DNA of 33,226 bases from Verrucomicrobiia bacterium (GCA_035577885.1 DATLUU010000748.1:1-33226), one strand, 5' to 3'; shown: positions 1 to 22,693, numbered from the stretch's first letter. The notes: generated by a model from the letters alone, not told the origin. Translations and numbers: made by a program.

Positions 1-1029
1 CTCCCGCCGCGCTGCGATTTCGTCAAGATCCCGACACTGGTGAAGGTCGATTCCGGGGTCTGGCGCTCCGACCGTCTCTCGCTCGGCCATAAGGAGATCC
101 TCTCCGTGCGCACGCGGCTCCTCGAGGGCCTGGTCGACAGCTTCCGGCCCGACCTCGTGCTCGTGGACCACATGCCGCACGGCATCTTCGGCGAGCTCAC
201 GTCGCCGCTCCGCATCCTCCGCCGGAGGCGCCGGCGCGCCCGCATCATGCTCGGGCTGCGCGACATCCTCGGCGCCCCGGCGGACATCTGCCGAAACTGG
301 CGGCTCGAGGGAGCCTACGAGGCCGCCGAGCAGTACTACGACGGGGTCTGCATCTACGGCTGCGCCGACGTATTCGACCTCGTGCGCGAGTACGAGTTCC
401 CCGCCGCGATCGCGGCCCGGGCCAGCTATTGCGGCTACGTGAGCCGCGAGCAGGCGCCGCCACCGCTCGAGGACGCCGACCTCCGGCGCATGTTCCCGCA
501 GCGGCACGACGGGCTCGTGTTCGTCACCGGCGGCGGCGGCGCCGACGCCAGCTTCTTCATGGACAAGTTCATCGACGCCGTGCGGTTGATGTTCCCACGC
601 GTGCCGTTCGATGCCGTGCTCTCGACCGGCCCGTTCATGCACCCCGAGCAGCACCTGTTGCTGCGCCGCAAGGCGAAAGGCCTGCCGATCCACGTCACCC
701 GGCACGGCCTGGACAACATCCGCATGCTGCGCCGCGCCGACCTCGTCATCTCGATGGCCGGCTACAACACGATCTCCGAGATCCTGCGCTACCGGAAGCG
801 CGCGATCGTCGTCCCGCGCACCGGCCCGAGCGCGGAGCAGACCATCCGCACCCGGATCATGGGGGAACGCGGGCTGTTCACGGTGGTGCTGGCGCGCGAG
901 CTCACCGCGGAGGGATTCGCGGCGCTCATCCGGCGAAAACTCGACGAGACCGTACCCGAGCACCCGGCCGGCATCCCGGACATGGACGGGGCCGCGAACG
1001 CCGCCGAGCGGCTGCTCGCGGTGAGCTGA
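1..1029 (+). CDS. Glycosyltransferase, GT-B fold (COG4671 / GT28 C-terminal-domain-like); 5' end cut by window edge
   Basis: The frame of ORF 40..1029 stays open back to nt 1 (LPPRCDFVKIPTL precedes the GTG at 40). The segments 'PDLVLVDHMPHG', 'LGLRDILG', 'VTGGGGADAS' and 'ISMAGYNTISE' resemble MurG-like/COG4671 predicted glycosyltransferases. This is recognition from memory. Confidence 0.7.
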   Translation, partial: LPPRCDFVKIPTLVKVDSGVWRSDRLSLGHKEILSVRTRLLEGLVDSFRPDLVLVDHMPHGIFGELTSPLRILRRRRRRARIMLGLRDILGAPADICRNWRLEGAYEAAEQYYDGVCIYGCADVFDLVREYEFPAAIAARASYCGYVSREQAPPPLEDADLRRMFPQRHDGLVFVTGGGGADASFFMDKFIDAVRLMFPRVPFDAVLSTGPFMHPEQHLLLRRKAKGLPIHVTRHGLDNIRMLRRADLVISMAGYNTISEILRYRKRAIVVPRTGPSAEQTIRTRIMGERGLFTVVLARELTAEGFAALIRRKLDETVPEHPAGIPDMDGAANAAERLLAVS

Positions 1030-1036
1030 GGCGCCC

Positions 1037-2329
1037 ATGAACCGGACCGCGCGCCCCGAGCCGGGCAGCCGCCGCATCGGCGTGGTGTTGAAGGGCTACC
1101 CGCGGCTCTCCGAGAGCTTCATCCTGCGGGAGATCCTCATGCTCGAAGCGCTCGGGCTCGACCTGCACATCTTCGCCCTGCGCGATCCGCGGGAGTCCAC
1201 CGTGCACGAGAGGGTGGCGCAGGTTCGAGCCCGAGTCACCTACCTGCCCGACCGTCTGCTCGGCGCCCTCGGCGCCGTGGCGGGCGCGAATGCGGCGCGG
1301 CTCGCGAGAGCGCCCCACCGCTACCTGACGGGGCTCGCCGAGGCGCTCGCGCGCAGCGCGCGCGAACGCGATGCTGCGCCGCTCAAACGTTTCCTCCAGG
1401 CCGCCGTGCTCGTGGAGCGCGGACTGCCCGGCACGGGGGTGACCCACCTCTACGCGCACTTCTGCAACGACCCCACGACCGTGGCGTACTTCGCGAGCCG
1501 GCTCTCCGGGATCCCGTTCAGCTTCAGTGCGCACGCGAAGGACATCTACACCCAGCACCCGGCCCAGCTCGCGAGCAAGGTCGCGCGCGCGAGCTTCGTC
1601 ACCACCTGCACCGCCGCGAACGCCGCGCACCTGAGGCAGCACGCGCGCGGCTCGACGCCGGTGCTGTGCTGCCTGCACGGCGTCGAGACCGACCGCTATC
1701 ACCCGGCGGGCGCTGCGCGCTCCGGCGTGCCGCACGTGCTCTCCGTGGGCCGGCTGGTGCCGAAGAAGGGTTTCCCCGTGCTGCTCGACGCGCTGGCGAC
1801 GCTGCGCGATCGCGGCGCCGGGTTCCGGTGCACGATCGTCGGCGTCGGGCCGCTCGAGAGCAGCCTGCGCGCGCAGGTCCACCGCCTCCGGCTCGACGAC
1901 CGGGTCGAGCTCAAGGGAGCGATCGCGGAGGACGCGCTCGCGGCGCTCTATCGCGAGGTGGACCTGTTCGCGCTCGCCTGCGAGGTGGAGGCGGACGGCG
2001 ACCGCGACGGCATCCCGAACGTCGTCGTGGAGGCGATGGCGAGCGGCCTGCCGGTGGTGTCGACGACCGTCTCCGGGTTGCCCGAGTGCGTGGACCACGG
2101 CGTCACCGGCCTGCTCGTTCCCGAGCGCCAGCCGCGCGCGCTCGCGGACGCGATCGGGTTGTTGCTCTCGCGTCCCGAGATGGCGCGCGCGCTTGGGCGC
2201 GCGGGCCGTGCCAAAGTCGAGCGCGAGTTCGCCGCGCACCGGAACGTGCTCCCGATCGCGGCCGCGCTCCACGAGGCCCTGGCGTTGCCGTTCACCGCCG
2301 CGGAGGTGTCGCATGCCGTGGGTGGATGA
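1037..2329 (+). CDS. Glycosyltransferase family 4 (WcaL-like GT-B)
   Basis: 430-aa ORF with an SD-like GAGG 5 nt upstream of the ATG. It has a C-terminal GT4 signature 'DGIPNVVVEAMASGLPVVSTTVSGLPECV' (E-x7-E type) and an N-terminal 'GVVLKGYPRLSESFILREI' typical of WcaL-like enzymes. Confidence 0.85.
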   Translation: MNRTARPEPGSRRIGVVLKGYPRLSESFILREILMLEALGLDLHIFALRDPRESTVHERVAQVRARVTYLPDRLLGALGAVAGANAARLARAPHRYLTGLAEALARSARERDAAPLKRFLQAAVLVERGLPGTGVTHLYAHFCNDPTTVAYFASRLSGIPFSFSAHAKDIYTQHPAQLASKVARASFVTTCTAANAAHLRQHARGSTPVLCCLHGVETDRYHPAGAARSGVPHVLSVGRLVPKKGFPVLLDALATLRDRGAGFRCTIVGVGPLESSLRAQVHRLRLDDRVELKGAIAEDALAALYREVDLFALACEVEADGDRDGIPNVVVEAMASGLPVVSTTVSGLPECVDHGVTGLLVPERQPRALADAIGLLLSRPEMARALGRAGRAKVEREFAAHRNVLPIAAALHEALALPFTAAEVSHAVGG

Positions 2330-3350
2330 GGGGCGCTACCCGGGCGAGGTCGACCGGCTCACCACGCTGCCGCTGGCGCTCGATCCCGCGCACATGGTGC
2401 CGGTGCTCGCCGAGCGTGCGGCGCCCGCGGGCTTCCACATCACGGAGCTCGAGGTCGGCATCTACCGGCGCCACGGGAACCGCTGCGTGATCCGCTATCG
2501 CGCCCGCGGCACCTCGCCGCGGGAAGGCGACGGCGAACGGCGCTGGATCGGGAAGGTGCTGCCGCCGGGCGCGGGCGCGACCCTGGACGCCAACCTGCGC
2601 GCGCTGTGGACGCACGGCTTCCACCGCGCTGCCGCCGACGGCATCGCGGTTCCCGAGCCGATCGCCTACCTACCCGAGCTGTCGATGCACCTGCAGGAGG
2701 ACGTGGGAGGTGTCTCCATCCGCAACCTGGTGAAGCGCGTCCCCGAGGCCGCGGATTTCCGCGTCGCGGCGCGGGTGCTGGCCAAGCTCCACGGCTGCGG
2801 GCTGCCACCGGGTGGCGCGCGGGGCGTGGACACGCTCATGCTCCGCTGCCATCCCCGCCATCCGTTCCTCGGGCTCGCGTTCCCCGACCTCGCCGCGACC
2901 GTGGACGACATCGTCGAGCGCGCGCGCGCGCTCGAGCGCCGCAGCCCCGTGCCCGTGACCCCGGTGCACGGCGACTTCCATCTCGGGCAGGTGCACGTGA
3001 GCGGGGAGCGCGCCTGGCTCGTGGACCTGGACGCGCTGGGCTTCGCCGACCCCGCCTCGGACCTCGGCAACGTGCTCGTGTTCCTCGAGGACAAGATGCG
3101 CCGCGAGCCCGCGCTGGCGTCGATGGTGAAGGCGTTCCGCGACGAGTACGCGGCCCGCTCGCTGCTCGACCCGTGGGCGCGCGTGCCGATGTACGAGGCG
3201 CTCACGCACCTGCGCCGCGCCTGCAAGCAGCTCCGGCTGCAGCCCGAGGGCTGGCGCGACAAGGTGCGCGCCATGGTCGAGCGCAGCCTGCGGAAGATCG
3301 CCGAGGCCGAAGCCCTGGCGGCGACGCCGGCGAACGGAGGTGGCGCGTGA
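2313..3350 (+). CDS. APH/maltokinase-fold phosphotransferase, paralog K1 (canonical HxD)
   Basis: Internal ATG at 2313 with GGAGG 6 nt upstream, overlapping the upstream stop by 17 nt. Motifs present are a beta3-Lys 'WIGKV', a hinge 'VPEPIAYLPELSMHLQEDVGG', a catalytic loop 'VHGDFHLGQV' (His codon 2967-2969, Asp 2973-2975) and a Mg-binding 'LVDLDAL'. Confidence 0.8.
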   Translation: MPWVDEGRYPGEVDRLTTLPLALDPAHMVPVLAERAAPAGFHITELEVGIYRRHGNRCVIRYRARGTSPREGDGERRWIGKVLPPGAGATLDANLRALWTHGFHRAAADGIAVPEPIAYLPELSMHLQEDVGGVSIRNLVKRVPEAADFRVAARVLAKLHGCGLPPGGARGVDTLMLRCHPRHPFLGLAFPDLAATVDDIVERARALERRSPVPVTPVHGDFHLGQVHVSGERAWLVDLDALGFADPASDLGNVLVFLEDKMRREPALASMVKAFRDEYAARSLLDPWARVPMYEALTHLRRACKQLRLQPEGWRDKVRAMVERSLRKIAEAEALAATPANGGGA

Positions 3351-3823
3351 GCGCGGCCGCGTTCGAGCTCCCGCCCGGAGGCCGCGTGCGCGCGGTCGGC
3401 ACCGTGGGCCCGGAAGGGCTGCTGGTCGCGGTCGGCATCGAGCCGCAGCCCTGGCGCCCGCGTGCGGTGGTCGAGGCCACCATCGAACGGATCGGGCACC
3501 GAGGCGCCGTGCACGTGCTCGGCGGCGCCGTGCGGGTGCGGCCGAACGTCAGGGTCACGGGTCCCGAGGGCGAGCCGCTGGCGCAGGACGCCATCGGCGC
3601 CGGCGCGCGCGTGTGGCTGGGCGGGCGCTGGTCCGAGACCTCGGGGTTCGTCGCGGACGTGATCCGTCTCCGGCCGCCGCGCGAGTTCGAGATCGTCAAG
3701 GTCGCGGGTCCGGCGCGGGGCTACGACGCCGCGCGCGGACGCGTCGAGATCGCCGGGTTCACCGTGGTGATGAACGGCCGCACCATGCTGGGAACGGGCG
3801 AGGATACGGAGGACGACGAATGA
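3347..3823 (+). CDS. Small beta-rich hypothetical protein (DUF5666-like pattern) with acidic C-terminal tail
   Basis: GTG at 3347 overlaps the K1 stop (GTGA), and its stop overlaps the K2 start (ATGA). The product is 158 aa with no signal peptide. It has repeated 'G.V.V.G..V.V' beta-strand patterns (AVHVLGGAVRVRPNVRVTG; RVEIAGFTVVMNGRT) and a terminal 'GTGEDTEDDE'. Tight coupling on both sides supports it being real. Confidence 0.55.
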   Translation: MSAAAFELPPGGRVRAVGTVGPEGLLVAVGIEPQPWRPRAVVEATIERIGHRGAVHVLGGAVRVRPNVRVTGPEGEPLAQDAIGAGARVWLGGRWSETSGFVADVIRLRPPREFEIVKVAGPARGYDAARGRVEIAGFTVVMNGRTMLGTGEDTEDDE

Positions 3824-4809
3824 TCGATTCCAAGCTCGTGACGCTGGGCCTGGTGGTCGATGACGACGCGATGCGCGAGCGCTTCGCGGCCACGCTCAAC
3901 TCCGGCCGGCCCCCGGCCGCGGGCGTGCGCCATGCCGTGCTCAAGCACACGCCGGGCAAGCGCTGCGTCATCGAGTACTGGATCGACCTGCCGGGCGCCG
4001 ACGAGGAGCGGATCATCGGCAAGGTCTATCGCGGCCAGCGCGGCGCGCGCGTGTACCAGTCGCTCCGCAGCCTGCACGCCGCGGCCACCGAGGGTGCGCG
4101 CAACGGAACGCGATTCCACATGGCGGAGCCGCTCGCCTACTACGACGACCTGGGCATGCTCGTCCAGACCGCGGTGCCGGGCCTGTCCCTGTCGCACCTC
4201 GGATCCGACGGCGACTGGGCGGGCGCCATGCGCGCGGTCGCCGACAACCTCGCCGCGCTGCACGACCTCGCGGTCGACGTCGAGCCCGCGACGGTGGCCG
4301 AGCTCGCGCACAAGCTCTGCCGCCCGCGGCCGGACGAGCTGGTGGCGCTGCGTCCGGAGCTTGCCGCCGAGGTGGAGAATATCGTCCAGGCGCTGGCGCT
4401 CGTGGACGCGGCCGGGCCCGGCAACTGCGTCGTCCATGCCGACCTGGGGCTGGGCCAGATCCTGTTCGACGGCGAGCGCGCGTCGTTCGTCGACCTGGAC
4501 GGCCTGCGTCGCTCGTACGCGGCGCTCGACGTCGCGAACTTCCTCGTCTCGCTGCGGCTCCGGCTCGGGCCGATGAGCCCCGAGCCCGAGCGCGTGTTCA
4601 CCGAGCGCTACATCGAGCGCCGGCCGGGAGAGCCGCTCGCCTGGCTCGACGCGTTCGAAGCGCTCGCCTACCTGCGCCGCGCCGCCGCCGCGTTCCGCAA
4701 GTCGTCGGATGCCGACGGCTTCGAGCGCGCGAAGCGCCTGCTCGCGATCGGGAACTGGATCGCGCGCACCGCGATGGAAGCCGACCCGCGCCGGGAGGTC
4801 GGCCCATGA
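3820..4809 (+). CDS. APH/maltokinase-fold phosphotransferase, paralog K2 (canonical HxD)
   Basis: ATG at 3820 within the long ORF 3340..4809. Motifs are 'RIIGKVYRG', a hinge 'MAEPLAYYDDLGMLVQTAVPG', 'VVHADLGLGQIL' (His 4435-4437, Asp 4441-4443) and 'FVDLDGL'. Confidence 0.8.
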   Translation: MIDSKLVTLGLVVDDDAMRERFAATLNSGRPPAAGVRHAVLKHTPGKRCVIEYWIDLPGADEERIIGKVYRGQRGARVYQSLRSLHAAATEGARNGTRFHMAEPLAYYDDLGMLVQTAVPGLSLSHLGSDGDWAGAMRAVADNLAALHDLAVDVEPATVAELAHKLCRPRPDELVALRPELAAEVENIVQALALVDAAGPGNCVVHADLGLGQILFDGERASFVDLDGLRRSYAALDVANFLVSLRLRLGPMSPEPERVFTERYIERRPGEPLAWLDAFEALAYLRRAAAAFRKSSDADGFERAKRLLAIGNWIARTAMEADPRREVGP

Positions 4810-6776
4810 AGCGGCTGTCGCGCTCGGTGGGCCGGCGGCAGGGGAGCCGCGTCGAGGAGCCGGCGGGGAACTGGAACGCGCGCGCGGTCCTGCGCGTCTA
4901 CCGCGCGTTCGCCCGCCACTACCGCCCCTACCGCGGCCGTCTCGCGGTGGCGATGCTGTGCCTGCTCGGTTCGATCACGTGCTCCGCGCTCGCGCCGTGG
5001 CCGCTCAAGCTGATCCTCGACCGCGTCATCCTCGGCAAGCCGTTCAAGCACGGGTTCGAGTTCTTGAATCCCATGCTCGCGCACGACGCGGGCCTGCTGC
5101 TGGCGCTGCTCGCGGCCTCGGTGGTGGTGCTCGCGGCGCTCGAGGCGATGTTCTCGTACGTGAACAAGTACTGGGCGTCCGGGACCGGCGACCGCATGTC
5201 GGCCGACATCCGCGAGCGCGTGTTCGCCCACCTCCAGCGCCTGTCGCTGTCGCTCGACGAGTCGCTCCAGTCCGGCGAGTTGATCTATCTCGTCACCACC
5301 GACACGCGGGCGATGAAGAACCTGCTCATCGACTTCCCGCAGGACTTCCTGCAGCGGCTGCTCACGATCGCCGTGTACTCGGCGATGATGCTGGCGCTCG
5401 ACTGGCGGCTCGGCCTGCTGGCGCTGTGCACGGCGCCGCTCGTCAGCCTCCTCACCCAGCGCTTCGGCCCCGGCATGCAGCGCGCCACGCGCGCCATGCG
5501 CGAGCAGGAGTCCGAGCTCGCCTCGATCGCGTCCGAGAACGTGTCGTCGATGGCGGTGATCCAGGCCTACGGGCAGGAGGGGAACGAGCGCGCACGCTTC
5601 GACGCCGAGAACCAGGGCAGCCTCGAGTCGCAGATGCAGGCGCTGCGGCTCCACCGGCTCTACGGGCGGCTCGTCGACCTGCTCGTGGCCTCGGCCACGA
5701 CCGCCGTGCTCTATTTCGGCGGCCGCTACGCGCTGCGCGGCGACATCGCGCCGGGCACGTTGGTGGTGTTCGTCGCCTACCTGCGCGAGATCCACGCCGC
5801 ATTCGAGAAATTCAGCCTGCTGTTCATGGGGCTCGCGCGCTCCATGGTGTCCGGGGAGCGCCTCATGGCGCTCGTCGGCCGCGACATCGTGGTGAAGGAC
5901 GAACCCGGGGCGGTGCCCGCCCCGCCCCTCCGCGGCGCCATCGAGTTCCGGAACGTGAGCTTCAGCTACCGCGAGGGCGTGGACGTGCTGCTCGACGTCA
6001 GCTTCACGATCGCGCCCGGGCAGACGGTGGCGCTCGCCGGTCCGAGCGGGGCGGGGAAGTCCACGCTGCTCGGCCTGCTGCTCCGCTTCCACGACCCCGA
6101 GCGGGGCCAGGTGCTGGTGGACGGCGTGGACGTGCGCCGCTACACGCTCGCGAGCCTGCGCGAGCAGGTCACGGTGCTGCTCCAGGACGCGAAGCTGTTC
6201 CGGCAATCGGTGGCCGACAACATCGCGTTCGGGCGGAAGGGCGCCACGTTCGCGGACATCGAGCGCGCGGCGCGCGACGCCGAGGCGCACGACTTCATCC
6301 TCTCGCTGCCGCAGGGCTACGACACGGTCATGGCCGAGCGCGGCGACGACTTCTCGGGCGGCCAGCGCCAGCGCATCAACATCGCGCGGGCGATGATCCG
6401 CAGCACGCCCATCGTCATCCTCGACGAGCCGCTCGCGGGACTCGACGCGCTCGCGGAGCGCCGGCTGCGCTCGGCGCTGCGCCGGCTCGCCGCCGGCCGC
6501 ACCACGTTCATCGTCGCGCACAAGATCTCGTCGCTCGCGAGCGCCGACGTGGTGCTGGTGCTCGAGTCCGGGCGGCTGATCGGGCGCGGCACGCACGCGG
6601 AGCTGCTGGAGAGCTGCGCCACCTACCGCGAGTTCTACGAGCTCCAGCGCATGCCGCCGCGCGCCCGGGTGCCGCTCGTGGCGACCCCCGCAGGGCCCCA
6701 CCGGAACGGCTCCACGAACGGCGCCACGAAAGGCTCCACGAACGGCGCCTCGGGGCACGAGGGAGGCGAGCGGTGA
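4806..6776 (+). CDS. ABC transporter, fused permease/ATPase half-transporter (type I exporter, MsbA-like)
   Basis: 656 aa with six predicted N-terminal TM helices. It has Walker A 'GPSGAGKST', signature 'FSGGQRQRINIARA', Walker B 'IVILDEP' and H-loop 'FIVAHK'. There is no N-terminal C39 peptidase domain. The ATG overlaps the K2 stop (ATGA). Confidence 0.9.
   Translation: MKRLSRSVGRRQGSRVEEPAGNWNARAVLRVYRAFARHYRPYRGRLAVAMLCLLGSITCSALAPWPLKLILDRVILGKPFKHGFEFLNPMLAHDAGLLLALLAASVVVLAALEAMFSYVNKYWASGTGDRMSADIRERVFAHLQRLSLSLDESLQSGELIYLVTTDTRAMKNLLIDFPQDFLQRLLTIAVYSAMMLALDWRLGLLALCTAPLVSLLTQRFGPGMQRATRAMREQESELASIASENVSSMAVIQAYGQEGNERARFDAENQGSLESQMQALRLHRLYGRLVDLLVASATTAVLYFGGRYALRGDIAPGTLVVFVAYLREIHAAFEKFSLLFMGLARSMVSGERLMALVGRDIVVKDEPGAVPAPPLRGAIEFRNVSFSYREGVDVLLDVSFTIAPGQTVALAGPSGAGKSTLLGLLLRFHDPERGQVLVDGVDVRRYTLASLREQVTVLLQDAKLFRQSVADNIAFGRKGATFADIERAARDAEAHDFILSLPQGYDTVMAERGDDFSGGQRQRINIARAMIRSTPIVILDEPLAGLDALAERRLRSALRRLAAGRTTFIVAHKISSLASADVVLVLESGRLIGRGTHAELLESCATYREFYELQRMPPRARVPLVATPAGPHRNGSTNGATKGSTNGASGHEGGER
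6708..6749 (+). repeat. Tandem 24-nt duplication in the C-terminal tail of the first ABC exporter
   Basis: GGCTCCACGAACGGCGCC occurs at 6708-6725 and again at 6732-6749, separated by ACGAAA. This encodes NGSTNGAT/KGSTNGAS. Confidence 0.8.
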
Positions 6777-8614
6777 GCGCGAAGGCGGCGAAGCGTGCGC
6801 CCGAGCGGCTCGACCAGCGGCGCCTGCTCCGGCTCTACCGCGCGTTCGCACCCCTCTACCGGCCGCACACGCGCGCGCTGGCGTGGTCGTTCACCGGGCT
6901 CGGACTGTCCACGATCACCACGCTGCTGCTGCCGTGGCCGCTCAAGATGGTCCTCGACCACGTCGTGCTCCACCGGGCGCTGCCAGCACCGCTGGGCTGG
7001 CTCTCGCGCTGGGCGGACGGCGATCCGCTGACGCTGCTGCTCGTGCTCTCGGCCGGCTACCTCGGCCTGCGCCTGCTCGACAGCCTGTTCACGTACGTCC
7101 ACCGCGTCGGGTTGATGGTCGTGGCGCAGAAGCTGGCCACCGAGATCCGCGAGCGGCTGTTCGCCAAGCTCCAGCGGCTGTCGCTGTCGTTCCACGGCGG
7201 GACGCGGGCCGGCGACCTCGTGCTCCGGCTGCTCTCGGACGTGAGCGACATCAAGATCGTCCTCATCGAGGTGCCGCAGACCGCCGCGCTCCAGGCGGGG
7301 CTGCTCGTCACGCACGCCACGCTCATGTTCCTCCTCGACTGGAGGCTGGCGCTGATCGCCTTCGCCGCGGTCCCGCCCATGGTGCTCTACAACCGCCGCG
7401 TCGGCGGCAACATCCAGGCCGCGGCCAAGGAGCGGCGCAGCAAGGAGGGCGAGGTCGCGTCCCTCGTCTCCGAGAACGTGACCGCGATGGCGCTCGTCCA
7501 GGCGTATGGCCGGGAGGACCTGCTGCACCAGCGCTTCCAGAGCGAGAACCGCGCCAGCCTCGCCTCGGGGCTCAAGGCGATGAAGCTCTCCAAGTCGTTC
7601 AAGCGCGTGAGCGACCTGCTGGTCGCCACCGGCACCGGCGCGGTGCTGTGGCTGGGAGGGCGTCTCGCGCTCCGGCACGAGCTGTCCCCGGGCACGATCG
7701 TGCTGTTCGTCGCCTACCTCCGCAACCTCTACAACCCGATCGACAAGATCTCGCAGACCATCCTCGATGCCGCCGGCGCCACGGCCTCCGGCGAGCGCCT
7801 GCTGGAAGTGCTCGAGTCCGAGATGGTGCTGCCGGAGGGCGAGGGCGCGGTCGAGGCGCCGCCGCTCGAGGGCCGGGTCGAGTTCGACGGCGTGACGTTC
7901 GGCTACCGGAGCGGCGAGCCCGTGCTGCGCGACGTGCGCTTCGCGGTCGAGCCGGGCGAGACCATCGCCGTGATCGGCCACAACGGCGCCGGCAAGTCGA
8001 CGCTCCTGTCGCTGCTGCTGCGCTTCTACGATCCGCAGTCCGGTGACATCCGCATCGACGGCCGCGACCTGCGCGACCTCAAGATCGACTCGATGCGCCG
8101 CCAGATCGCGGTGGTGATGCAGGAGTCGCGGCTGTTCCAGAAGTCCGTGCGCGAGAACATCCGCTTCGGCAAGCTGGGCGCCACCGACGCCGAGGTCGAG
8201 CGTGCGGCGCGGCTCGCGCAGGCGCACGAGTTCATCATCGCCATGCCCCAGGGCTACGACACGCTGATCCGCGAGGGCGGCGAGAGCCTGTCGGGCGGCG
8301 AGCGCCAGCGCATCAACATCGCCCGCGCGATCGTGCGCGAGGCGCGCCTGGTGATCCTCGACGAGCCCTCGACCGCGCTCGACGCGCGCACCGAGGCGGC
8401 GGTGCGGAGCGCCATGCGCGAGCTGACGCGCGGCCGGACCACGTTCCTGGTCGCCCACTCCGCCGCCACCTGGCGCGAGGCCGACCGCATCCTGCTGCTC
8501 GAGCAGGGCCGGGTTGCGGGCTTTGGCACGCACGAAGAGCTGGAGCGGACGTGCGCCGCCTACCGCGAGCTGATCGGTGCGCACGCCGACGACGTGCGCG
8601 AGGTGCGGGCATGA
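6773..8614 (+). CDS. ABC transporter, fused permease/ATPase half-transporter (probable heterodimer partner)
   Basis: GTG at 6773 overlaps the upstream stop (GTGA). It has an N-terminal TM domain, Walker A 'GHNGAGKST', signature 'LSGGERQRINIARA', Walker B 'LVILDEP' and H-loop 'FLVAHS'. Confidence 0.9.
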   Translation: MSAKAAKRAPERLDQRRLLRLYRAFAPLYRPHTRALAWSFTGLGLSTITTLLLPWPLKMVLDHVVLHRALPAPLGWLSRWADGDPLTLLLVLSAGYLGLRLLDSLFTYVHRVGLMVVAQKLATEIRERLFAKLQRLSLSFHGGTRAGDLVLRLLSDVSDIKIVLIEVPQTAALQAGLLVTHATLMFLLDWRLALIAFAAVPPMVLYNRRVGGNIQAAAKERRSKEGEVASLVSENVTAMALVQAYGREDLLHQRFQSENRASLASGLKAMKLSKSFKRVSDLLVATGTGAVLWLGGRLALRHELSPGTIVLFVAYLRNLYNPIDKISQTILDAAGATASGERLLEVLESEMVLPEGEGAVEAPPLEGRVEFDGVTFGYRSGEPVLRDVRFAVEPGETIAVIGHNGAGKSTLLSLLLRFYDPQSGDIRIDGRDLRDLKIDSMRRQIAVVMQESRLFQKSVRENIRFGKLGATDAEVERAARLAQAHEFIIAMPQGYDTLIREGGESLSGGERQRINIARAIVREARLVILDEPSTALDARTEAAVRSAMRELTRGRTTFLVAHSAATWREADRILLLEQGRVAGFGTHEELERTCAAYRELIGAHADDVREVRA

Positions 8615-10008
8615 GCCGCGCGCTCGGTGCATTGCGCGATCGTGCCCCGCGGGCGGTGGGCTCGCTCGACCTGCCGGAGGCCTGTGAGATCCCGCAGCTC
8701 GCGGCGATCGTCGAGCCCGGGCGCCTCACGCGTGCGCTCGGCGACGCGCTGGCGCAGGCGGATCCGGGAGCACCGCCGCTGCTCCGCTGCAGCGTCCTCA
8801 AGGTGCACTACCGTCCCGGCCGGGAGTGCCGGCTGGTGATCTCGGCGCACTTCCGCTCCGGGCGCCGCACGGCGGAGCAGCTCTACTTCGGCAAGCTGCT
8901 GGCGGGCGCTCCCAGCGCGCACGAGAACGGCACCTCCACCCCTTCAGCGCCGCGGGCTGCCGCGCCGAGCTTCGGGCCCGCGAGCCTCCACGTCGCGGAC
9001 TGGGACCTGCGGCTCTGGGCCTATCCCAACGATCCCGAGCTGCCCGGGCTGCCGCTCCTCACCGATCCCGAGCGCGTGCGCGAGCGCTTCGCCTCCGAGC
9101 CGGAGGTGTTCGGCTTCGAGCGCGCGCCGCGCTCGCTGCGTGCGCGCCGCGCCAAGTACGTGCCCGGCAGGCGCTGCGGCTATGCCTACGACGTCAAGGG
9201 CTGGAGCCGGCGTGGGCGCGCGGCCGCGCGCCGCGTCTACGGCAAGTGCTACGCGGGCGCCGCGGCGGCCGTCGCGCACGATGCGGCATGGCGCGTGTGG
9301 CACAGCACGCCCGCGCGCGAGGGGCGCCTGCGGGTGCCGCGGCCGTTCGCCTGTGACGAGGCCGACGGCATCACCTGGCAGGAGGGGCTCGCCGGGCGAC
9401 CCGTCCTCAAGGAGCGCGCGCACGCGACGCACCTGCCCGACATCGCGGGTGAGATCGGCCTTCGGCTCGCCGCGCTCCACGGCGCCGTGCTGCCGCTGCC
9501 CCGGGAGATGGACCATGCCTCGCAGCTCGCGATGCTCCGCGGATCTCTCGCCGGCGCGCGTGCGACCGACGTGCCCGCCGCGCGTGCCGCATGCGAGCTG
9601 GGTGCGCGCCTGCTCGCGCACGGCTCGCGATTCCCGGAGCTGCCCTCGGTGACGCTGCACGGCAGCTTCCGCCTGAGCCACATCCTCGAGACTCCCGAGG
9701 GCATCGCGTTCATCGACCTGGATGGCGCCACCGCGGGCGATCCGGGCGTCGACCTTGGACGGTTCCTCGCCCACCTGCGGCGGCTCGAGGCGCAGGGCTC
9801 GGTCGCCCCCGCGATCGCCGACGCGACCGCGCGCGAGTTCCTCCGCGGCTACGAGGCCGCCGCTCCCGTGCGCGTGAGCGACGAGCGGATCGGCTGGGCG
9901 ACCGCCGTGCACCTGATCTCAGGCGGTCTCGACAAGGCCGTGAAGCGCATGGACGCGCGTTTGCTCGCCGCGCTCACCGGCGCGGCGGCGGAGAGCTACC
10001 CATCATGA
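8611..10008 (+). CDS. APH-fold kinase-like protein, paralog K3 (HGS variant, long N-terminal extension)
   Basis: ATG at 8611 (ATGA overlap). Motifs are 'LYFGKLLAG', 'WAYPNDPELPGL', the catalytic-loop position 'TLHGSFRLSHIL' (His 9658-9660, Ser 9664-9666 in place of Asp) and 'FIDLDGA'. Confidence 0.75.
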   Translation: MSRALGALRDRAPRAVGSLDLPEACEIPQLAAIVEPGRLTRALGDALAQADPGAPPLLRCSVLKVHYRPGRECRLVISAHFRSGRRTAEQLYFGKLLAGAPSAHENGTSTPSAPRAAAPSFGPASLHVADWDLRLWAYPNDPELPGLPLLTDPERVRERFASEPEVFGFERAPRSLRARRAKYVPGRRCGYAYDVKGWSRRGRAAARRVYGKCYAGAAAAVAHDAAWRVWHSTPAREGRLRVPRPFACDEADGITWQEGLAGRPVLKERAHATHLPDIAGEIGLRLAALHGAVLPLPREMDHASQLAMLRGSLAGARATDVPAARAACELGARLLAHGSRFPELPSVTLHGSFRLSHILETPEGIAFIDLDGATAGDPGVDLGRFLAHLRRLEAQGSVAPAIADATAREFLRGYEAAAPVRVSDERIGWATAVHLISGGLDKAVKRMDARLLAALTGAAAESYPS

Positions 10009-11537
10009 GCGTTCACCCGGAATCGAAGCGAGTGCGCCGCGCATCGCCCACGACCACGGCCGGGCCCTTCGGCCTGCTCGTGGACCCGGTGCTGCCGCGA
10101 CTCGCGGCGGCGCTCGACCCCGCCGCGATGGCGCGGCGGTTCGCGAAGGGCCTCGCCGAGAGCGCGCGCGGACCCGCGCCCCGGGTGAGGGCGTGCGAGG
10201 TGGAGGAGGTCTATCACCGCTCGGGGCGTCACTGCGGGATCCTCTACCGGCTGCGGCTCGAGGGCGCCCATGGCGCCGAGCACGACGAGTGGCTCTACGC
10301 GCGCATGCTCCCCGGCGAGCTCGTGCGCGAGCGCTACCCCAAGGCGCTCGACGGCGTCGTCGCCGCCGGAGCCTCGGCGCTGGTGAGCACCGCGCTCGAT
10401 CCGGTGAGCCTGTGGGAAGACCTCGACATGATCGTGTGGGCGTTCCCGAACGATCCCAAGCTGCCGGGGCTGCGGGCCATGGCGGACGCCACCAGGGTGC
10501 GCGCGCAGCTCGAGCGCCAGCGCGGCGGCACCGGGCGCGCGGCGGACGGGAGCGGTGACAGCTCCGGCGACGGCGACGAGTCGCTGGTCATCGAGCGCGT
10601 GAAGTACATGCCGACCAAGCGCTGCGTGCTGCGCTACCGCCTCGCTCCCGAGCCCGGGAGCGAGGGGCCGCGCCCGCCGGCTGTGTTCTACGCCAAGGCC
10701 TATCCGGTGGGCGCGAGCACGGCGCCGTTCGAGCTGCAGCGCGCCGTCCGCGAGCGCCTCTCGGAGTCGCGCGCGGCGGTCGAGATCGCCGAGCCGCTCG
10801 TCCACATTCCCGAGGAGAGCGTGATCTGGTTCGCGGACTGGGGCGGCTTCGGCATCATCGGCGAGGCCGCCGAGCGGGGCTGGGATGCGATGGCCGACCG
10901 TGCCGCGACGGCGCTCGCGGCGTTCCACCGCGTCTCGATGTCCGGGCTCCCGGAGCACCGCCCGCCGGCGGAGGAGTTGGTGGAGGCGCGCGAGGACGCG
11001 GCCAAGTACGCCGCCCGCGTGGGCGAGGCCGCGCGTCCCGTGCTCGACATGCTCACCCGGCTCGAACGCGAGCTGCCGCGGACCGGCGATCGCCCGGCGG
11101 TGCCGCTCCACGGCGCGTTCCGCGCCGAGCACGTGCAGGTCCGTGGCACCGACGCCGCGCTGCTCGACCTGGACGGGATGGCGTCCGGCGATCCGCTCGT
11201 GGACGTGGCGGAGTTCGTGGCCTCGCTCGAGTTCCTGGCGCTCCGCTCCACCGCGGGCCCGATCGACTCCGAGGCGGTCTCGCAGCGTTTCCTCGAGGCC
11301 TACGCCGCGGGCGTGCCGTGGACGATCGACGGCGCGAGCCTCGGCTGGTACGCGCGCACCTCGCTGCTGCGCAAGCTGCACGGCGCGGTGAAGCGGCTGG
11401 CGCTGCCCACGCTCGACCGGCTCGAGGCGCACGGAGCCGATCTCGTCGAGCGCTGGAACGGCATCGCGGCGTGGGCGCCGCGCCAGCGGACGCGGTGGGT
11501 CGGGGCGCGCGCGCGTGCGGTGGGGGCGGGATCGTGA
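10005..11537 (+). CDS. APH-fold kinase-like protein, paralog K4 (HGA variant, long N-terminal extension)
   Basis: ATG at 10005 (ATGA overlap). Motifs are 'VFYAKAYPVG', 'WAFPNDPKLPGL' (shared with K3), 'PLHGAFRAEHVQ' (His 11109-11111, Ala 11115-11117 in place of Asp) and 'LLDLDGM'. It also has a low-complexity insert 'GSGDSSGDGDES'. Confidence 0.75.
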   Translation: MSVHPESKRVRRASPTTTAGPFGLLVDPVLPRLAAALDPAAMARRFAKGLAESARGPAPRVRACEVEEVYHRSGRHCGILYRLRLEGAHGAEHDEWLYARMLPGELVRERYPKALDGVVAAGASALVSTALDPVSLWEDLDMIVWAFPNDPKLPGLRAMADATRVRAQLERQRGGTGRAADGSGDSSGDGDESLVIERVKYMPTKRCVLRYRLAPEPGSEGPRPPAVFYAKAYPVGASTAPFELQRAVRERLSESRAAVEIAEPLVHIPEESVIWFADWGGFGIIGEAAERGWDAMADRAATALAAFHRVSMSGLPEHRPPAEELVEAREDAAKYAARVGEAARPVLDMLTRLERELPRTGDRPAVPLHGAFRAEHVQVRGTDAALLDLDGMASGDPLVDVAEFVASLEFLALRSTAGPIDSEAVSQRFLEAYAAGVPWTIDGASLGWYARTSLLRKLHGAVKRLALPTLDRLEAHGADLVERWNGIAAWAPRQRTRWVGARARAVGAGS

Positions 11538-12865
11538 AGCTCGCCTACGTGTGCGCGGATTTCGGGGTGCCGGTGTTCGGGCACAAGGGCGCGTCGGTGC
11601 ACGTGCGCGAGATGGTGACCGCGTTCACCGAGTGCGGTCACGACGTGCGCGTGTTCGCGCCCACGCTCGACGAGCCCGGGTCGAAGGGCGTCCAGAGTGA
11701 GCGCTTCCGCGCGCGCATCGAGCGCGAACCCGGCAGCATCGAGATCCTCGAGGTCGGGCCCGAGCCCCGGCACGTGCTGTGGCTCGACGAGCTCAAGTCC
11801 GTCGAAGCGTTCCTCGGCCGGCCGACGCGACTGCGGCAGGAACTGCGGAACCTGCTCTACAACCAGCCGCTCCGCGCGCGCCTCGGGCGTGCGCTCCTCG
11901 CCGAGCCGGTGGACTTCGTCTACGAGCGCTACTCGCTCTTCGCCTTCGCCGGCATCGACGCGGCGCGCACCCACCACGTGCCGCACGTGCTCGAGGTGAA
12001 CGCGCCGCTGGCCGACGAGCAGGAGCGCACGCGCGGGCTCGAGCTGCGCGAGCTGGCGCGGGGGAGCGAGCGGCGGATCTGGAACTCCACCGACGCGGTG
12101 ATCGTGGTCTCGCAGCGGCTGGCGGAGACCGTGGCGGCGTCCGGCGTGCCGGGCGAGCGCATCCACGTGCTGCCGAACGCGGTGGACCCGCTCCAGTTCA
12201 CGCCCGGCGCCGCGCCCGACGCGGTCCCCGCGCACGTCCGCGAGCGCGTGCGCGGTCGCTGCGTCATCGGCTTCGTCGGCTCGCTCAAGCCCTGGCACGG
12301 CGTGGAGACGTTGTTCGATGCGTTCGCGCGCCTGCTCGTCCGGCGCTGCGCCGTGCACCTGGTCGTGGTCGGCGACGGCCCCGGGCGCGAATCGCTCGAG
12401 CGGCTCGCCGCCGACCGCGGCATCGCCGAGGAGGTGACGTTCGCCGGCGCCGTCGCCCATGGGGAAGTCCCCGCGTGGCTCTCGATCATGGACATCGCCA
12501 CCGCGCCCTACACGCCGCAGCCGGACTTCTACTTCTCGCCCCTCAAGCTGTTCGAGTACATGGCCGCGGGCGTGCCGGTCGTGGCCGGCCGCATCGGCCA
12601 GCTGGACGAGCTGCTCCGGCACGAGCGCAACGCGCTCCTGCACACGCCCGGCGACGCGCACGCGCTCGCGGTCGAGCTCGAGCGGCTCGTGCGCGACCCC
12701 ATGCTGCGCCGGCGCATCGGCCTCGCGGGTCGCGACGGGATCGGCGAAGGGCACACCTGGCGCGGACACGCGCGGCGGATCGAGGCCCTCGTCCACTCGC
12801 TCGCGGGCAACGATGCGCCGCCGGACGCGGGCCAGGAGCCCGCGGCGGAGGCACCGCACGCATGA
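11534..12865 (+). CDS. Glycosyltransferase family 4
   Basis: GTG at 11534 (GTGA overlap). The N-terminus 'KLAYVCADFGVPVFGHKGASVHVREM' is followed by a C-terminal 'FSPLKLFEYMAAGVPVVAGRIGQLDELL' GT4 E-x7-E region. Confidence 0.85.
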   Translation: MKLAYVCADFGVPVFGHKGASVHVREMVTAFTECGHDVRVFAPTLDEPGSKGVQSERFRARIEREPGSIEILEVGPEPRHVLWLDELKSVEAFLGRPTRLRQELRNLLYNQPLRARLGRALLAEPVDFVYERYSLFAFAGIDAARTHHVPHVLEVNAPLADEQERTRGLELRELARGSERRIWNSTDAVIVVSQRLAETVAASGVPGERIHVLPNAVDPLQFTPGAAPDAVPAHVRERVRGRCVIGFVGSLKPWHGVETLFDAFARLLVRRCAVHLVVVGDGPGRESLERLAADRGIAEEVTFAGAVAHGEVPAWLSIMDIATAPYTPQPDFYFSPLKLFEYMAAGVPVVAGRIGQLDELLRHERNALLHTPGDAHALAVELERLVRDPMLRRRIGLAGRDGIGEGHTWRGHARRIEALVHSLAGNDAPPDAGQEPAAEAPHA

Positions 12866-14016
12866 AGCCGATCGCGCTCGTCACCAGCCAGTACCCGCCG
12901 CAGGTGGGCGGGGTCGGCCACTCCGCGGCCAGGGTGGCGCGGCTGCTCGCGCGCGACGGCCGGGACGTGCACGTGATCGCGTTCCAGAAGCACACGGAGT
13001 CGCTGCCGCTGGACGACGCCATCACCTCCTCCCGTGAGGGCGACGTGCTCGTCCACCGCGTGCTCGTCCACCACCCCACGGGCTGCAGCGAGGCGGAGAC
13101 GCTGACGCGCTCGAACCGCGAGATGTTCCAGGCGCTCGATCGCCTCACCCGCCGCTACGGCTACGGGGTGCTGCACGGCTTCTTCCTCTATCCCGCCGCG
13201 TACATCGCCGGGATCGTCGGCCGCATGCACGGCACCCGGGTCATCGCCTCGATCCGCGGCAACGACGTGGGGAAGTACGCGTTCGACCCGTTGCGACAGG
13301 GTTTCGTGCGCTCGGCGCTCGAGAACGCCGACGCCGTCACCTCGGTGGCGACCTCGCTGCTCGAGCTCGCGGACCGCGCGCTGGTGCCGCTCCACGGCCG
13401 CGGGCGCACCATCTTGAATTCCATCGACCCGCAGCGGCTCGTCGCGCGCGAGCGCCCGGACCTGGCGCTCCACGGCCTGGTCCTCGGCTCGAGCGGCTTG
13501 TTCCGCTACAAGAAGGGCATCGTGCACCTGTTCCGCGCGCTCCAGTCGCTGAACGGCGACGTGGAGTACACGCTGCTCATGGCGGGGGACGGTTTCGGCG
13601 CGGAGGACCGTGAGATGCTCGACCGCGAGATCGAGGCGCACGGGCTCGCGGCGAGGACGCGCCTCACCGGGCGCATCCCGCCCGAGCGCATGGGCGACTA
13701 CCTCCGGCTCTTCGACATCATGGTGTTCCCGTCGCTGTTCTCGGAGGGCTGCCCGATCTCCATGCTGGAGGCGATGGCGCTCGGGCGCGCGATCATCGCC
13801 AGCCGCGTCGCCGCGATCCCGGAGATCCTCCGCGATGGCGAGAACGGCCTGCTCGTCGAGCCGGGCTCGCCGGGCGAGATCGCCAAAGCCATCCGCCGGC
13901 TCGCCGGCGACGCCGGGCTCCGGAAGGCGCTCGGCGAGGGTGCGCGCACGACGGCGCTGGCCATGGACCTCGACCATGAGGCCGGGCAATGGGCTCAGGT
14001 CTACGCCGCGCTATGA
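12862..14016 (+). CDS. Glycosyltransferase family 4
   Basis: ATG at 12862 (ATGA overlap). Motifs are 'MKPIALVTSQYPPQVGGVGHSAARVA' and 'PSLFSEGCPISMLEAMALGRAIIASRVAAIPEIL'. Confidence 0.85.
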   Translation: MKPIALVTSQYPPQVGGVGHSAARVARLLARDGRDVHVIAFQKHTESLPLDDAITSSREGDVLVHRVLVHHPTGCSEAETLTRSNREMFQALDRLTRRYGYGVLHGFFLYPAAYIAGIVGRMHGTRVIASIRGNDVGKYAFDPLRQGFVRSALENADAVTSVATSLLELADRALVPLHGRGRTILNSIDPQRLVARERPDLALHGLVLGSSGLFRYKKGIVHLFRALQSLNGDVEYTLLMAGDGFGAEDREMLDREIEAHGLAARTRLTGRIPPERMGDYLRLFDIMVFPSLFSEGCPISMLEAMALGRAIIASRVAAIPEILRDGENGLLVEPGSPGEIAKAIRRLAGDAGLRKALGEGARTTALAMDLDHEAGQWAQVYAAL

Positions 14017-15101
14017 GCTCGCCCCGCAACCTGGTCGCGCTGCACATGCCGGGACGCGGCGGCGGAATTGGCGCGCCCGACTGGCGCCCCGTGGAGGAGG
14101 CCGACCTGGTGGCGTGGCTCCGCCGCGACGGGGCCCGGCGCGCCGGCGGCGACGCGTCGCAACAGCTCGAACGCGCCTCGATCACCATCGTCCGCCACGC
14201 GGCGGGCAAGCGGCTCACCGCGCGCTGCCGGCTGGTGCTCGTGGCGCCGAACGGAGGTCGCGAGCTCCTCACCGTGTTCGCGAAGCAGTACCGGCGGCGG
14301 GACCTGGCGCGGCGGCTGGCGCGCCAGCTCCGCACGCTGCGCTTCGCGCCGGGCGATCCTCCGGTGCGCTTCCCGAAGCTCCTGGGACTGGATGCGCGGC
14401 GCGGCATCGTGTTCATGGAGGCCCTGCACGGGAGGCCATTCGCGCCCGAGCTCGACGGCGCGCCCGCCCGGTCACTCGAGCCGGCAGGGGCATTGATGGC
14501 GGCGTTCCACCGCGCCTCCGCGACGGTCGAGAAGCGCGTCACCCGTGCCGACGAGCTGGTGCGCACGCGGGAGTGCGCGGACGCGATCGCCCAGGTCTAC
14601 CCGGATCTCGTGCCCGCGCTCGAGCGACTGCAGTCCTCGCTGGCGCACACCGCCTGGGGCCGGAGCGGCCGCCGGGCGCTGCTCCACGGCTCGTTCCGGC
14701 CGAACCACTTGATGGTCCACGGCAGCGAGCTCGCGGTGTTCGACCTCGAGAGCCTCCGTGTCGGCCCGCCCGGCTACGACCTCGCCAACTGCGTCGCGAC
14801 GCTCCACTACCAGCAGGCGCTGGGGCAGCTCTCGGCGCCGGCGCGGCGTCGCGCGGTGCGTGCATTGCTCCGAGGCTACCGCGCGCACGGCGGCGACGAG
14901 TCGTGCGCGCGCGCTCTCTGGCTCACGGCGGCGCTCCTCGTCCAGAAGCAGGCGCTCAAGGTGGCGACGCGATCGCGCGCGCAGGCGTCGTCGCGCGCGC
15001 GCACCCGCGCCCTGGTGGCACGCGCCGAGCAGCTCGCCGCCCGCGCCGCCGCCACGCCCGCAGGTCCGGGAATCGAGCGGCTCGAGCGGGAGCTCGCATG
15101 A
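14013..15101 (+). CDS. APH-fold kinase-like protein, paralog K5 (HGS variant)
   Basis: ATG at 14013 (ATGA overlap). Motifs are 'TVFAKQYRR', a hinge 'GIVFMEALHGRPF', 'LLHGSFRPNHLMV' (His 14685-14687, Ser 14691-14693) and 'VFDLESL'. Confidence 0.7.
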   Translation: MSSPRNLVALHMPGRGGGIGAPDWRPVEEADLVAWLRRDGARRAGGDASQQLERASITIVRHAAGKRLTARCRLVLVAPNGGRELLTVFAKQYRRRDLARRLARQLRTLRFAPGDPPVRFPKLLGLDARRGIVFMEALHGRPFAPELDGAPARSLEPAGALMAAFHRASATVEKRVTRADELVRTRECADAIAQVYPDLVPALERLQSSLAHTAWGRSGRRALLHGSFRPNHLMVHGSELAVFDLESLRVGPPGYDLANCVATLHYQQALGQLSAPARRRAVRALLRGYRAHGGDESCARALWLTAALLVQKQALKVATRSRAQASSRARTRALVARAEQLAARAAATPAGPGIERLERELA

Positions 15102-19142: not shown

Positions 19143-19211
19143 ACGCAAGAGATACCCGGTTCAGACACGGCGGCCGCTGCGCTCGTCGCACACTCGTGCA
19201 CAATGAGTGTC

Positions 19212-19231
19212 GGCGATCCGAGGCGATCCGA
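19212..19231 (+). promoter_or_regulatory. Perfect tandem 10-mer (GGCGATCCGA x2), candidate response-regulator site
   Basis: GGCGATCCGA at 19212-19221 is repeated immediately at 19222-19231, 52 nt upstream of the ATG at 19283. It lies in the only sizeable lower-GC intergenic region after the operon. An ACACTC(9 nt)GAGTGT inverted repeat sits just upstream at 19190-19210. Confidence 0.3.
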
Positions 19232-19282
19232 AGGGCGCCGCGGCGAAGTCCCGAACTTCCACACCTCGAACCGGAGACGACC

Positions 19283-21407: not shown

Positions 21408-21432
21408 GCCGCCGGCCGCGAAGAGGTGCGGC

Positions 21433-22680: not shown

Positions 22681-22693
22681 GCGCGGGGATCCC

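Follow-up and report, generated by a model that had tools for sequence, protein, structure and literature searches.

A 33,226-nucleotide stretch of DNA from a Verrucomicrobiia bacterium (GCA_035577885.1, DATLUU010000748.1:1-33226; hereafter the window) carries an operon in which four glycosyltransferases and an MsbA-like ATP-binding cassette (ABC) exporter are encoded together with five paralogs of the aminoglycoside phosphotransferase (APH) kinase fold, K1 to K5. We have found that these paralogs fall into two classes, as a first-pass annotation of the sequence had proposed: K1 and K2 retain the Asp of the catalytic loop, and K3, K4, and K5 have Ser or Ala in its place while keeping the beta3 Lys and the DxD Asp. 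The data support the view that the Asp-less loop has been selected rather than being in decay, since it is invariant in the orthologs of K5 and in some 48 distant representatives, and since each paralog keeps its own class across phyla. Our favored interpretation, to which we assign a probability of about 0.45, is that K3/K4 and K5 would bind ATP-metal and an anionic glycan, would not phosphorylate hydroxyl groups, and would act as adaptor or regulatory subunits.

All five proteins lie above the gathering threshold of the Pfam APH family PF01636 (41.9 to 62.8 bits, against 23.2) and belong to the maltokinase/glucosamine-kinase-like branch of the fold; at 23 to 34% mutual identity, they are old paralogs. 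Translation reproduced exactly the five loop motifs and codon coordinates reported earlier, namely, VHGDFHLGQ (K1), VHADLGLGQ (K2), LHGSFRLSH (K3), LHGAFRAEH (K4), and LHGSFRPNH (K5), together with the acidic motif that follows them, DLD in K1 to K4 and DLE in K5, at a constant 19 residues from the loop His in all five paralogs (Table 1). The H-x-D-x4-N/Q form of the catalytic loop is present in K1 and K2, which have the full catalytic set (beta3 Lys, loop Asp, loop Gln, and DxD Asp), and absent from K3, K4, and K5. The latter three fit the operational definition of a pseudokinase through the loss of the catalytic-loop Asp only, their beta3 Lys and DxD Asp being invariant. A beta3 Lys had been claimed for every paralog, and each does have one; however, that of K3 had been misassigned to FGKL, and the true residue is K212, in YGKC. 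The suspected likeness of the K1 loop to that of maltokinase was borne out by direct phmmer alignment, in which vhgdfhlgqv of K1 was paired with vhgdlhlgqv of maltokinase 4u94.

The HG[S/A] segment of K3 to K5 is the catalytic loop, given the profile alignments, the 19-residue spacing to the DxD motif, the confident AlphaFold2 (AF2) models, and the matches to kinase structures. A profile of K3 homologs ('tlHGdFrlshvL...IDlDg') aligned to maltokinase ('vHGDLHLGQVL...IDFEG') and to glucosamine kinase ('vHGDFHVGQIL...VDFDG'), and a profile of K5 orthologs ('LLhGsfrpnh...dLe') aligned to corramycin phosphotransferase ('HGDLAPSN...DFE'), which places the segment at the HGD loop of all three enzymes. 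AF2 models of K3 (predicted local distance difference test [pLDDT], 88.4) and K5 (pLDDT, 80.9) matched APH, choline kinase, methylthioribose kinase, and maltokinase structures with a Foldseek probability of 1.00; the top matches of the K3 model were the maltokinase structures 4u94/4o7o, over approximately 500 aligned columns, and 5jy7 and 6hwl were also matched at full length. A phmmer comparison of K5 with PDB sequences gave nothing meaningful, and the solved kinases were reached only by profiles and fold comparison.

The catalytic Asp has not been relocated elsewhere in the K5 clade, where the only invariant acidic residues are the DxD Asp and the structural Asp of YDLAN. In K3-type proteins, D249 and D377 were rejected as candidates for such a role, being specific to that clade and not found in K4 or K5; D377 belongs to the ordinary 'GDP' motif of the APH fold. 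In glucosamine kinase (GlcNK), the loop Asp, D300, and the residue two positions on, H302, contact the sugar, and two Mg ions are coordinated by Q305, the loop Gln, and D317, the DFD Asp (PMC6520443); in maltokinase (Mak), the base is proposed to be Asp305, with Asp322 as an Mg ligand (PMC4306142). Judged by these roles, both sugar-contacting loop residues and one metal ligand have been replaced in K3 to K5.

Loss of the Asp is accompanied by a second change in the loop. We collected 263 catalytic loops from relatives, which are related sequences, so that the counts represent non-independent events. Arg or Lys occupied the position two residues after the Asp position (D+2) in 107 of 107 Asp-less loops, compared with 2 of 155 Asp-containing loops. 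At D+5, the Asp-less loops had either His (86 loops) or Gln (21 loops); however, His was also found there in 29 of the 155 Asp-containing loops, such as HKDFHxGH and the K2-type HGDVHFAH. The Asp-less class is therefore marked by a small residue (Ser, Thr, or Ala) in place of Asp, by Arg or Lys at D+2, and by His as the loop metal ligand (Gln in some K4-type proteins). The change coupled to Asp loss is the basic residue at D+2 and not the His at D+5, because that His is shared with Asp-containing loops and because K4-type proteins of other phyla have Gln. It had been proposed that K3 to K5 share a new conserved His and retain their nucleotide and metal ligands. The His is indeed present in all three, but its position is that of the canonical Asn/Gln metal ligand, and it is not confined to loops that have lost the Asp; likewise, the beta3 Lys and the DxD Asp are retained, but the Asn/Gln ligand of the loop has given way to His.

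Since the former Asp may be replaced by Ser, Thr, Ala, or Gly, a hydroxyl group at this position is not essential. A catalytic Ser nucleophile was ruled out, since Ala, Thr, Gly, and Cys-containing variants are found in the same clades. In eukaryotic protein kinases, D+2 is where the Lys or Arg that contacts the gamma-phosphate lies (HRDLK, HRDLR). The coupling does not hold in a metagenome-assembled genome (MAG) of Gaiellaceae (locus L012, positions 3-6173), which has six tandem paralogs of the same fold; two of them are Asp-less and have no Arg or Lys at +2, their loops reading HGNFHARQ and HGGFHMSQ.

The variant motif is conserved in orthologs. No variation was seen among 23 orthologs of K5 (51 to 96% identity) in the beta3 Lys, LLHGSFR, the loop His (H240), or DLESLR. 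When 1.84 billion cluster representatives were searched exhaustively with a profile, 48 matches were obtained at an E value of ≤1e-30, and every readable loop among them conformed to HG[STA]x[RK]xxH, with Asp in none. In an alignment of the K5 clade (n = 41; identity to K5 mostly 23 to 38%, with four closer orthologs at 51 to 68%), the invariant residues, numbered from the ATG at 14013, were R67 and T69 (P-loop), K91 (beta3), H166, L224-H225-G226, R229, H232, D244, G251, and D256. Similarly, K212, H290, H350, D369, and G383 were invariant among 32 K3 homologs. The beta3 Lys, the His of the HG motif, the P-loop Arg, and the DxD Asp are thus invariant in the Asp-less clades. The pattern is far beyond chance and is invariant in orthologs and in relatives down to 23 to 38% identity. 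The Asp-less state is the derived one, because remote K3 relatives that share the same N-terminal extension have the loop HGD[LF]HxRN. In a neighbor-joining tree, whose deep branches are too short for independent Asp losses to be counted, the K3, K4, and K5 clades lie close together, and the Asp-less first domains of fused proteins branch elsewhere.

Relatives were found by pattern scanning of GTDB genomes; they lie in MAGs of Methylomirabilota (the closest, at 63%), KSB1, Zhuqueibacterota, Eisenbacteria, and Calditrichota, over which the operon is spread, and of Gaiellaceae. The related loci are referred to here by L numbers. A module consisting of the glycosyltransferase genes GT4b and GT4c, K5, a histidine kinase gene, a response regulator gene, and an HprK-like gene, the last three being its regulatory tail, is syntenic in these MAGs, except in Gaiellaceae L012, and often also includes genes for a DUF5666 protein, an outer-membrane factor (OEP), a membrane-fusion protein (MFP), and a MacB-type permease. 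In all related loci seen (L001 to L010, L013, L014, and L016), the K5-type gene was accompanied by GT4b and GT4c. Each orthogroup keeps its own Asp-containing or Asp-less class in the syntenic clusters of several phyla. Across loci, and among K1 orthologs, the K1-type loop is HGDFHL[GA]Q; the K2-type loop is HGD...Q/H (HGD[FL]GLGQ, HGDLGVSQ, and HGDVHFAH in K2 orthologs); the K3-type loop is H[GA]S[FL][RK]x[SG]H; the K4-type loop is HG[AST]x[RK]xx[QH] (HGAFRAEH in K4 orthologs and HG[AST]x[RK]xxQ in K4 relatives from other phyla); and the K5-type loop is HG[STA]x[RK]xxH. Between the window and contig L001, identity is 61 to 71% for K3 to K5, which is near the 68% of K2; it is 79% for K1.

To judge by the genes of the operon and of the related clusters, the family probably decorates a glycan or glycolipid that is anionic and exported. 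Genes for sulfotransferases, ATP sulfurylase, and adenylylsulfate (APS) kinase lie among the kinase paralogs in the clusters of other phyla (L005, 3482-6331; L006, 5844-7010; L007, 1446-6057; L013, 3316-7131; L014, 12759-15412), which suggests that the same product is sulfated there alongside or instead of being phosphorylated. A lipid A-type acyltransferase is encoded in one related cluster as well, and an AsnB-like amidotransferase in some. In Ramlibacter alkalitolerans (L015, 4061-21362), two adjoining canonical kinases, one of them of the cap type, are encoded in a uronic-acid exopolysaccharide cluster with a GT28 and two GT4 glycosyltransferases, a heparinase II/III-like protein, an ABC exporter, an AlgE-like porin, and UDP-sugar dehydrogenases; one of these two kinases had been missed by the precomputed Pfam annotation. 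For the relatives, no database name beyond generic labels, mostly 'phosphotransferase family protein', was found.

K3 and K4 differ from the other paralogs in having approximately 170 extra N-terminal residues (approximately residues 1 to 170 in K3), which repeat the first three strands of the kinase N-lobe (blastp; hhalign probability, 95.9%; E value, 6e-9). In K3, the duplicated segment is visible as PGREC...FGKL followed by PGRRC...YGKC, and the FGKL at residues 93 to 96 lies in the extra copy and is not conserved; the K4 cap matches the N-lobe of K2 (blastp E value, 6e-7). These extensions are a maltokinase-like cap derived from a duplicated N-lobe sheet, and both maltokinase and GlcN kinase have an N-terminal cap subdomain. 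The three-part build of cap, intermediate subdomain, and helical C-lobe is found in K3; K4 shares the extension, and K1, K2, and K5 are without it. The sequence WAYPNDPELPGL occurs in K3 at nucleotides 9016-9051, and WAFPNDPKLPGL occurs in K4 at nucleotides 10437-10472; the WxxPNDPxLPG motif of both proteins lies at the cap junction, and its Asp, D141, is invariant in the 32 K3 homologs. The shared motif and extensions had been attributed to a tandem duplication, and K3 and K4 are in fact the most alike pair over their full length; since their identity is only 28%, the duplication is ancient. K5-type proteins of other phyla are 450 to 500 residues long and have an N-terminal extension, which is missing in this lineage. 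K5 has no cap. It is strongly basic (59 Lys plus Arg against 32 Asp plus Glu), unlike K1, K2, and K4.

Proteins of approximately 940 residues join two Asp-less domains: P0103 combines a K3-type domain with a K4-type domain, and P0105 combines a K4-like domain with a second domain that falls near the K4 and K5 clades in the neighbor-joining tree. A 701-residue protein of L013 joins two canonical domains, and in Aeromicrobium-type proteins an Asp-less domain (HG[GSA]FRxGQ) is fused to an HKDFHxGH domain. Both classes were present in seven of nine informative loci; however, L006 and L016 have Asp-less paralogs only, within 19 to 21 kb. Co-occurrence of the variant with an HxD paralog is therefore not universal; a canonical neighbor is common but not obligatory.

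Among characterized proteins, Mak/Pep2 and the actinobacterial GlcNK are the best matches, both structurally (to the K3 model, at full length) and by profile-sequence comparison. K1 shares their HGD-x-H-x-G-Q loop, all five paralogs share the DxD/DxE motif, and the cap, intermediate subdomain, and helical C-lobe recur in K3 and K4, unlike in the capless K1, K2, and K5. None of the five is a maltokinase or a GlcN kinase as judged by curated models or by the sugar signature, however. K1 gave marginal scores of 16.6 bits to TreS_Cterm (TIGR02457; cutoff, 375) and 17.1 bits to GlcN_kinase (NF041273; cutoff, 550), to which K2 to K5 had no match; the GlcNK sugar signature Q-x2-RE-x2-YA-x3-LP-x-W occurs in none of the five; K3 to K5 do not have the Asp and His that contact the sugar in GlcNK; and no domain of TreS or GlgE, to which Mak is genetically linked, was found among the window genes scanned.

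The Asp-less paralogs are also reminiscent of TvaE, LxmX, and RosX, which have a kinase fold without the catalytic Asp and are encoded beside an active paralog (TvaC, LxmK, and RosK). TvaE (8jsu) was the second-best structural match of K3, at 21 to 22% identity, and the third-best match of K5. These inactive APH-fold paralogs bind substrate and partner enzymes and have lost the Mg-chelating motif as well (PMC12291118). By contrast, the K3 and K5 clades keep the beta3 Lys and the DxD Asp invariant, and Asp loss in TvaE, LxmX, and RosX came without the gain of Arg or Lys that is seen in K3 to K5. A presumably active paralog is encoded in the present operon too, but the setting differs, since those genes lie in ribosomal-peptide clusters and here we found no precursor peptide, lyase, or LanD, the neighbors being glycosyltransferases, ABC exporters, and a two-component system. 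Bacterial spore kinases (BSKs) such as CotS/YtaA are APH/choline-kinase-like, several of their subfamilies are Asp-less, and some are linked to glycosyltransferases (PMC2860764). They differ in belonging to spore-forming Firmicutes and in that their pseudokinases show varied and extensive motif loss rather than one conserved constellation. The FAM20 proteins (FAM20A, FAM20C, and FAM20B) are secretory-pathway kinases that include a glycan (xylose) kinase and an ATP-binding pseudokinase that partners an active kinase; being eukaryotic and unrelated in sequence, they offer an analogy only. Asp-less kinase-fold paralogs beside active kinases are therefore known, and what distinguishes the present case is the retained nucleotide-metal site, the coupled gain of Arg or Lys, and the conserved multi-phylum glycan operon.

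We postulate that K1 and K2 are the working sugar or glycan O-kinases of the pathway. K3 and K4 probably act as a pair, because fusions of K3-type and K4-type domains exist. In K3/K4 and K5, ATP-metal binding would have been kept and hydroxyl phosphorylation lost, and the acceptor pocket would have shifted from acidic (Asp, His) to basic (Arg/Lys, His). The ligand of these three proteins is most likely an anionic glycan intermediate, phosphorylated in this organism and sulfated in other phyla, and they may serve as nucleotide-dependent adaptor or regulatory subunits for GT4b, GT4c, and the export steps, in a role akin to that of the inactive kinase-fold paralogs that hold substrate for their partners in thioamitide and class V lanthipeptide pathways. 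Several points weigh against this scheme. ATP binding by K3 to K5 is predicted from the retained residues alone, and the electrostatics of their pocket are likewise a prediction from sequence. The strict active-site constellation resembles a working catalytic or ligand site more than it does a passive scaffold, and the scaffolding TvaE/RosX (PMC12291118) and the BSK pseudokinases (PMC2860764) have lost the Mg-binding motif too. Furthermore, L006 and L016 show that no canonical kinase is needed nearby, and in these clusters the Asp-less proteins could be the sole kinases.

The main alternative, which we regard as possible, with the odds against it, is that K3 to K5 are active phosphotransferases that dispense with a general base and act on an already anionic acceptor (a sugar phosphate or a carboxylate), or are an ATP-hydrolyzing switch. 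Phosphotransfer would then yield a pyrophosphate, a phosphodiester precursor, or an acyl phosphate; the Arg or Lys at D+2 would neutralize the acceptor and the transferred phosphate, and the D+5 His and the DxD Asp would hold the metals. Points in favor of such chemistry are a complete ATP-metal apparatus that is invariant at 23 to 38% identity, a basic D+2 residue gained in all 107 Asp-less loops collected, and the loci with Asp-less paralogs only; the occurrence of the D+5 His in Asp-keeping loops makes this residue compatible with catalysis, and the pathway probably makes anionic glycans. However, no example of an APH-fold kinase that acts on phosphate or carboxylate was found here, and the interchange of Ser, Thr, Ala, and Gly implies that the replacing residue is itself non-catalytic. 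Kinase-fold proteins without the loop Asp but with the Lys and DFG Asp in place mostly bind nucleotide and are inactive. Taken to its full extent, the same idea would make K3/K4 and K5 members of a widespread kinase-fold class that phosphorylates an anionic glycan group (a sugar phosphate, a sulfate-bearing sugar, or a uronate) without a general base, with an Arg/Lys-His-metal site in place of Asp, and that builds pyrophosphate, phosphodiester, or acyl-phosphate linkages into an envelope glycan of several uncultured phyla; we consider this broader proposal unlikely.

It is far less probable that K3 to K5 are nucleotide-free scaffolds or obligate allosteric partners of K1 and K2, with the Lys and Asp as mere remnants of the fold. 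The two classes do cluster together in most informative loci, an Asp-less and an Asp-containing domain are joined in the Aeromicrobium-type proteins, and TvaE/LxmX/RosX and the BSK pseudokinases provide precedents. Remnants of a fold would not stay invariant amid divergence to 23 to 38% identity, however; the Mg motif is gone from the known scaffolds of this fold; the fusions of this family pair variant with variant and canonical with canonical; and L006 and L016 have no canonical partner in cis. Finally, the idea that HG[S/A] is not the catalytic loop, or that the genes are decaying pseudogenes or misframed open reading frames (ORFs), draws on the 72% G+C content of the window, its many spurious ORFs, and the region 3340-3819, which is indeed non-coding in the K2 frame, but it is already refuted by the profile alignments, DxD spacing, confident AF2 models, and cross-phylum conservation, by a third-position GC content (GC3) of approximately 0.9 in the called frames, by the 4-nucleotide overlaps at gene junctions, and by the same genes being called on independent contigs.

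In annotation, the small-molecule kinases of bacteria that have the APH fold are usually lumped together as 'aminoglycoside phosphotransferase family protein', and the present analysis singles out among them a conserved, multi-phylum subgroup with a coordinated Asp replacement and a retained ATP-metal site. If K3 to K5 are ATP-binding non-kinases, as we favor, they would be rare bacterial pseudokinase paralogs within a glycan assembly line, and active proteins would instead represent a base-free variant of kinase chemistry. In either case, a simple sequence rule, a small residue at the Asp position and Arg or Lys two residues on, provides a testable handle on a large conserved operon.

Genes in the window were called by GC3 frame analysis and then checked against the gene calls on syntenic public contigs. 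Eleven consecutive junctions, from a small ORF through the response regulator gene (3347-17329), are 4-nucleotide ATGA/GTGA start/stop overlaps, and this gene set therefore appears to be a single translationally coupled operon. The order of the genes is that of Table 1, followed by DUF5666, OEP, MFP, and MacB-type permease genes. The ABC exporter genes, whose best NCBIfam matches (MsbA_rel, MsbA, HepA, and glucan exporter) are all below the cutoffs, sit between K1/K2 and K3/K4 and are not at this position in L001. A K2 start at the upstream GTG at 3340 was ruled out by GC3 and synteny.

Table 1. Genes of the kinase operon and active-site motifs of K1 to K5, in window coordinates
Feature	Position (nt)	Strand	Basis or remark
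GT28-like glycosyltransferase	Cut by window start, ends 1029	+	Pfam; precedes K1 in L001 and L014 too
GT4a glycosyltransferase	1037-2329	+	Pfam; operon-opening; precedes K1 in L001 and L014 too
K1, 345 aa	2313-3350	+	Pfam APH, 49.9 bits
K1 beta3 Lys, IGKV	2547-2558	+	
K1 loop, HGDFHLGQ	2967-2990	+	Asp GAC, 2973-2975
K1 DLD	3024-3032	+	
Small ORF, 158 aa	3347-3823	+	GC3 frame switch; 156-aa gene called at same place in L001
K2, 329 aa	3820-4809	+	Pfam APH, 41.9 bits
K2 beta3 Lys, IGKV	4015-4026	+	
K2 loop, HADLGLGQ	4435-4458	+	Asp GAC, 4441-4443
K2 DLD	Within 4489-4500	+	
MsbA-related half-transporter ABC exporter genes, two	4806-6776, 6773-8614	+	Pfam ABC_membrane and ABC_tran
K3, 465 aa	8611-10008	+	Pfam APH, 54.1 bits
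K3 beta3 Lys (K212), YGKC	9238-9249	+	
K3 loop, HGSFRLSH	9658-9681	+	Ser AGC, 9664-9666
K3 DLD	Within 9712-9723	+	
K4, 510 aa	10005-11537	+	Pfam APH, 42.1 bits
K4 beta3 Lys, YAKA	10689-10700	+	
K4 loop, HGAFRAEH	11109-11132	+	Ala GCG, 11115-11117
K4 DLD	Within 11163-11174	+	
GT4b glycosyltransferase	11534-12865	+	Pfam
GT4c glycosyltransferase	12862-14016	+	Pfam
K5, 362 aa from ATG 14013 (370 aa from ATG 13989)	14013 (or 13989)-15101	+	Pfam APH, 62.8 bits
K5 beta3 Lys, FAKQ	14277-14288	+	
K5 loop, HGSFRPNH	14685-14708	+	Ser TCG, 14691-14693
K5 DLE	14742-14750	+	
Sensor histidine kinase, two transmembrane segments	15098-17329	+	Pfam, NCBIfam
OmpR-type response regulator	17326-18039	+	Pfam, NCBIfam
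P-loop HprK-like ('ScmC') protein	18032-19108	+	Pfam, NCBIfam

The small ORF, which has 4-nucleotide overlaps on both sides, had no Pfam or NCBIfam match; it is kept in L001 and, more distantly, in L014 and L016. Its product is a relative of the secreted DUF5666 protein (19196-19885) but has no signal peptide and is cytoplasmic. Its acidic C-terminal tail was considered as a kinase substrate and rejected, as the tail is not kept in L014. The HprK-like protein has the P-loop GGLGGVGKTT and weakly resembles HprK-related kinase A (31.5 bits). In the precomputed Pfam annotation, its homolog in L013 is labeled PF27840 'ScmC', a name for which the literature gave unrelated acronyms only. In most related loci, the gene comes after the histidine kinase and response regulator genes; RtcB lies directly behind it in L004, L005, and L013 and one gene further on in L007. 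No match to PADLOC defense models was found among ten operon proteins, and a defense-system reading is thus unsupported despite faint TCAD9 and GT4-conflict Pfam matches in relatives.

Genes for an outer-membrane factor, a membrane-fusion protein, and a MacB/DevC-type permease lie together at 19938-23932 (+ strand), and several phyla keep this trio downstream of the operon. An ATPase is neither fused to the permease nor encoded beside it. Further along, within 25034-27592 (+ strand), a VIT-VWA protein similar to the 'marine proteobacterial sortase target' (418 bits, below the cutoff) is followed directly by a 179-residue exosortase K (XrtK; 95 bits; cutoff, 55). A sixth kinase-like gene, unrelated to K1 to K5, encodes a CotH-family atypical kinase at 31284-32447 (- strand; Pfam E value, 8.5e-32).

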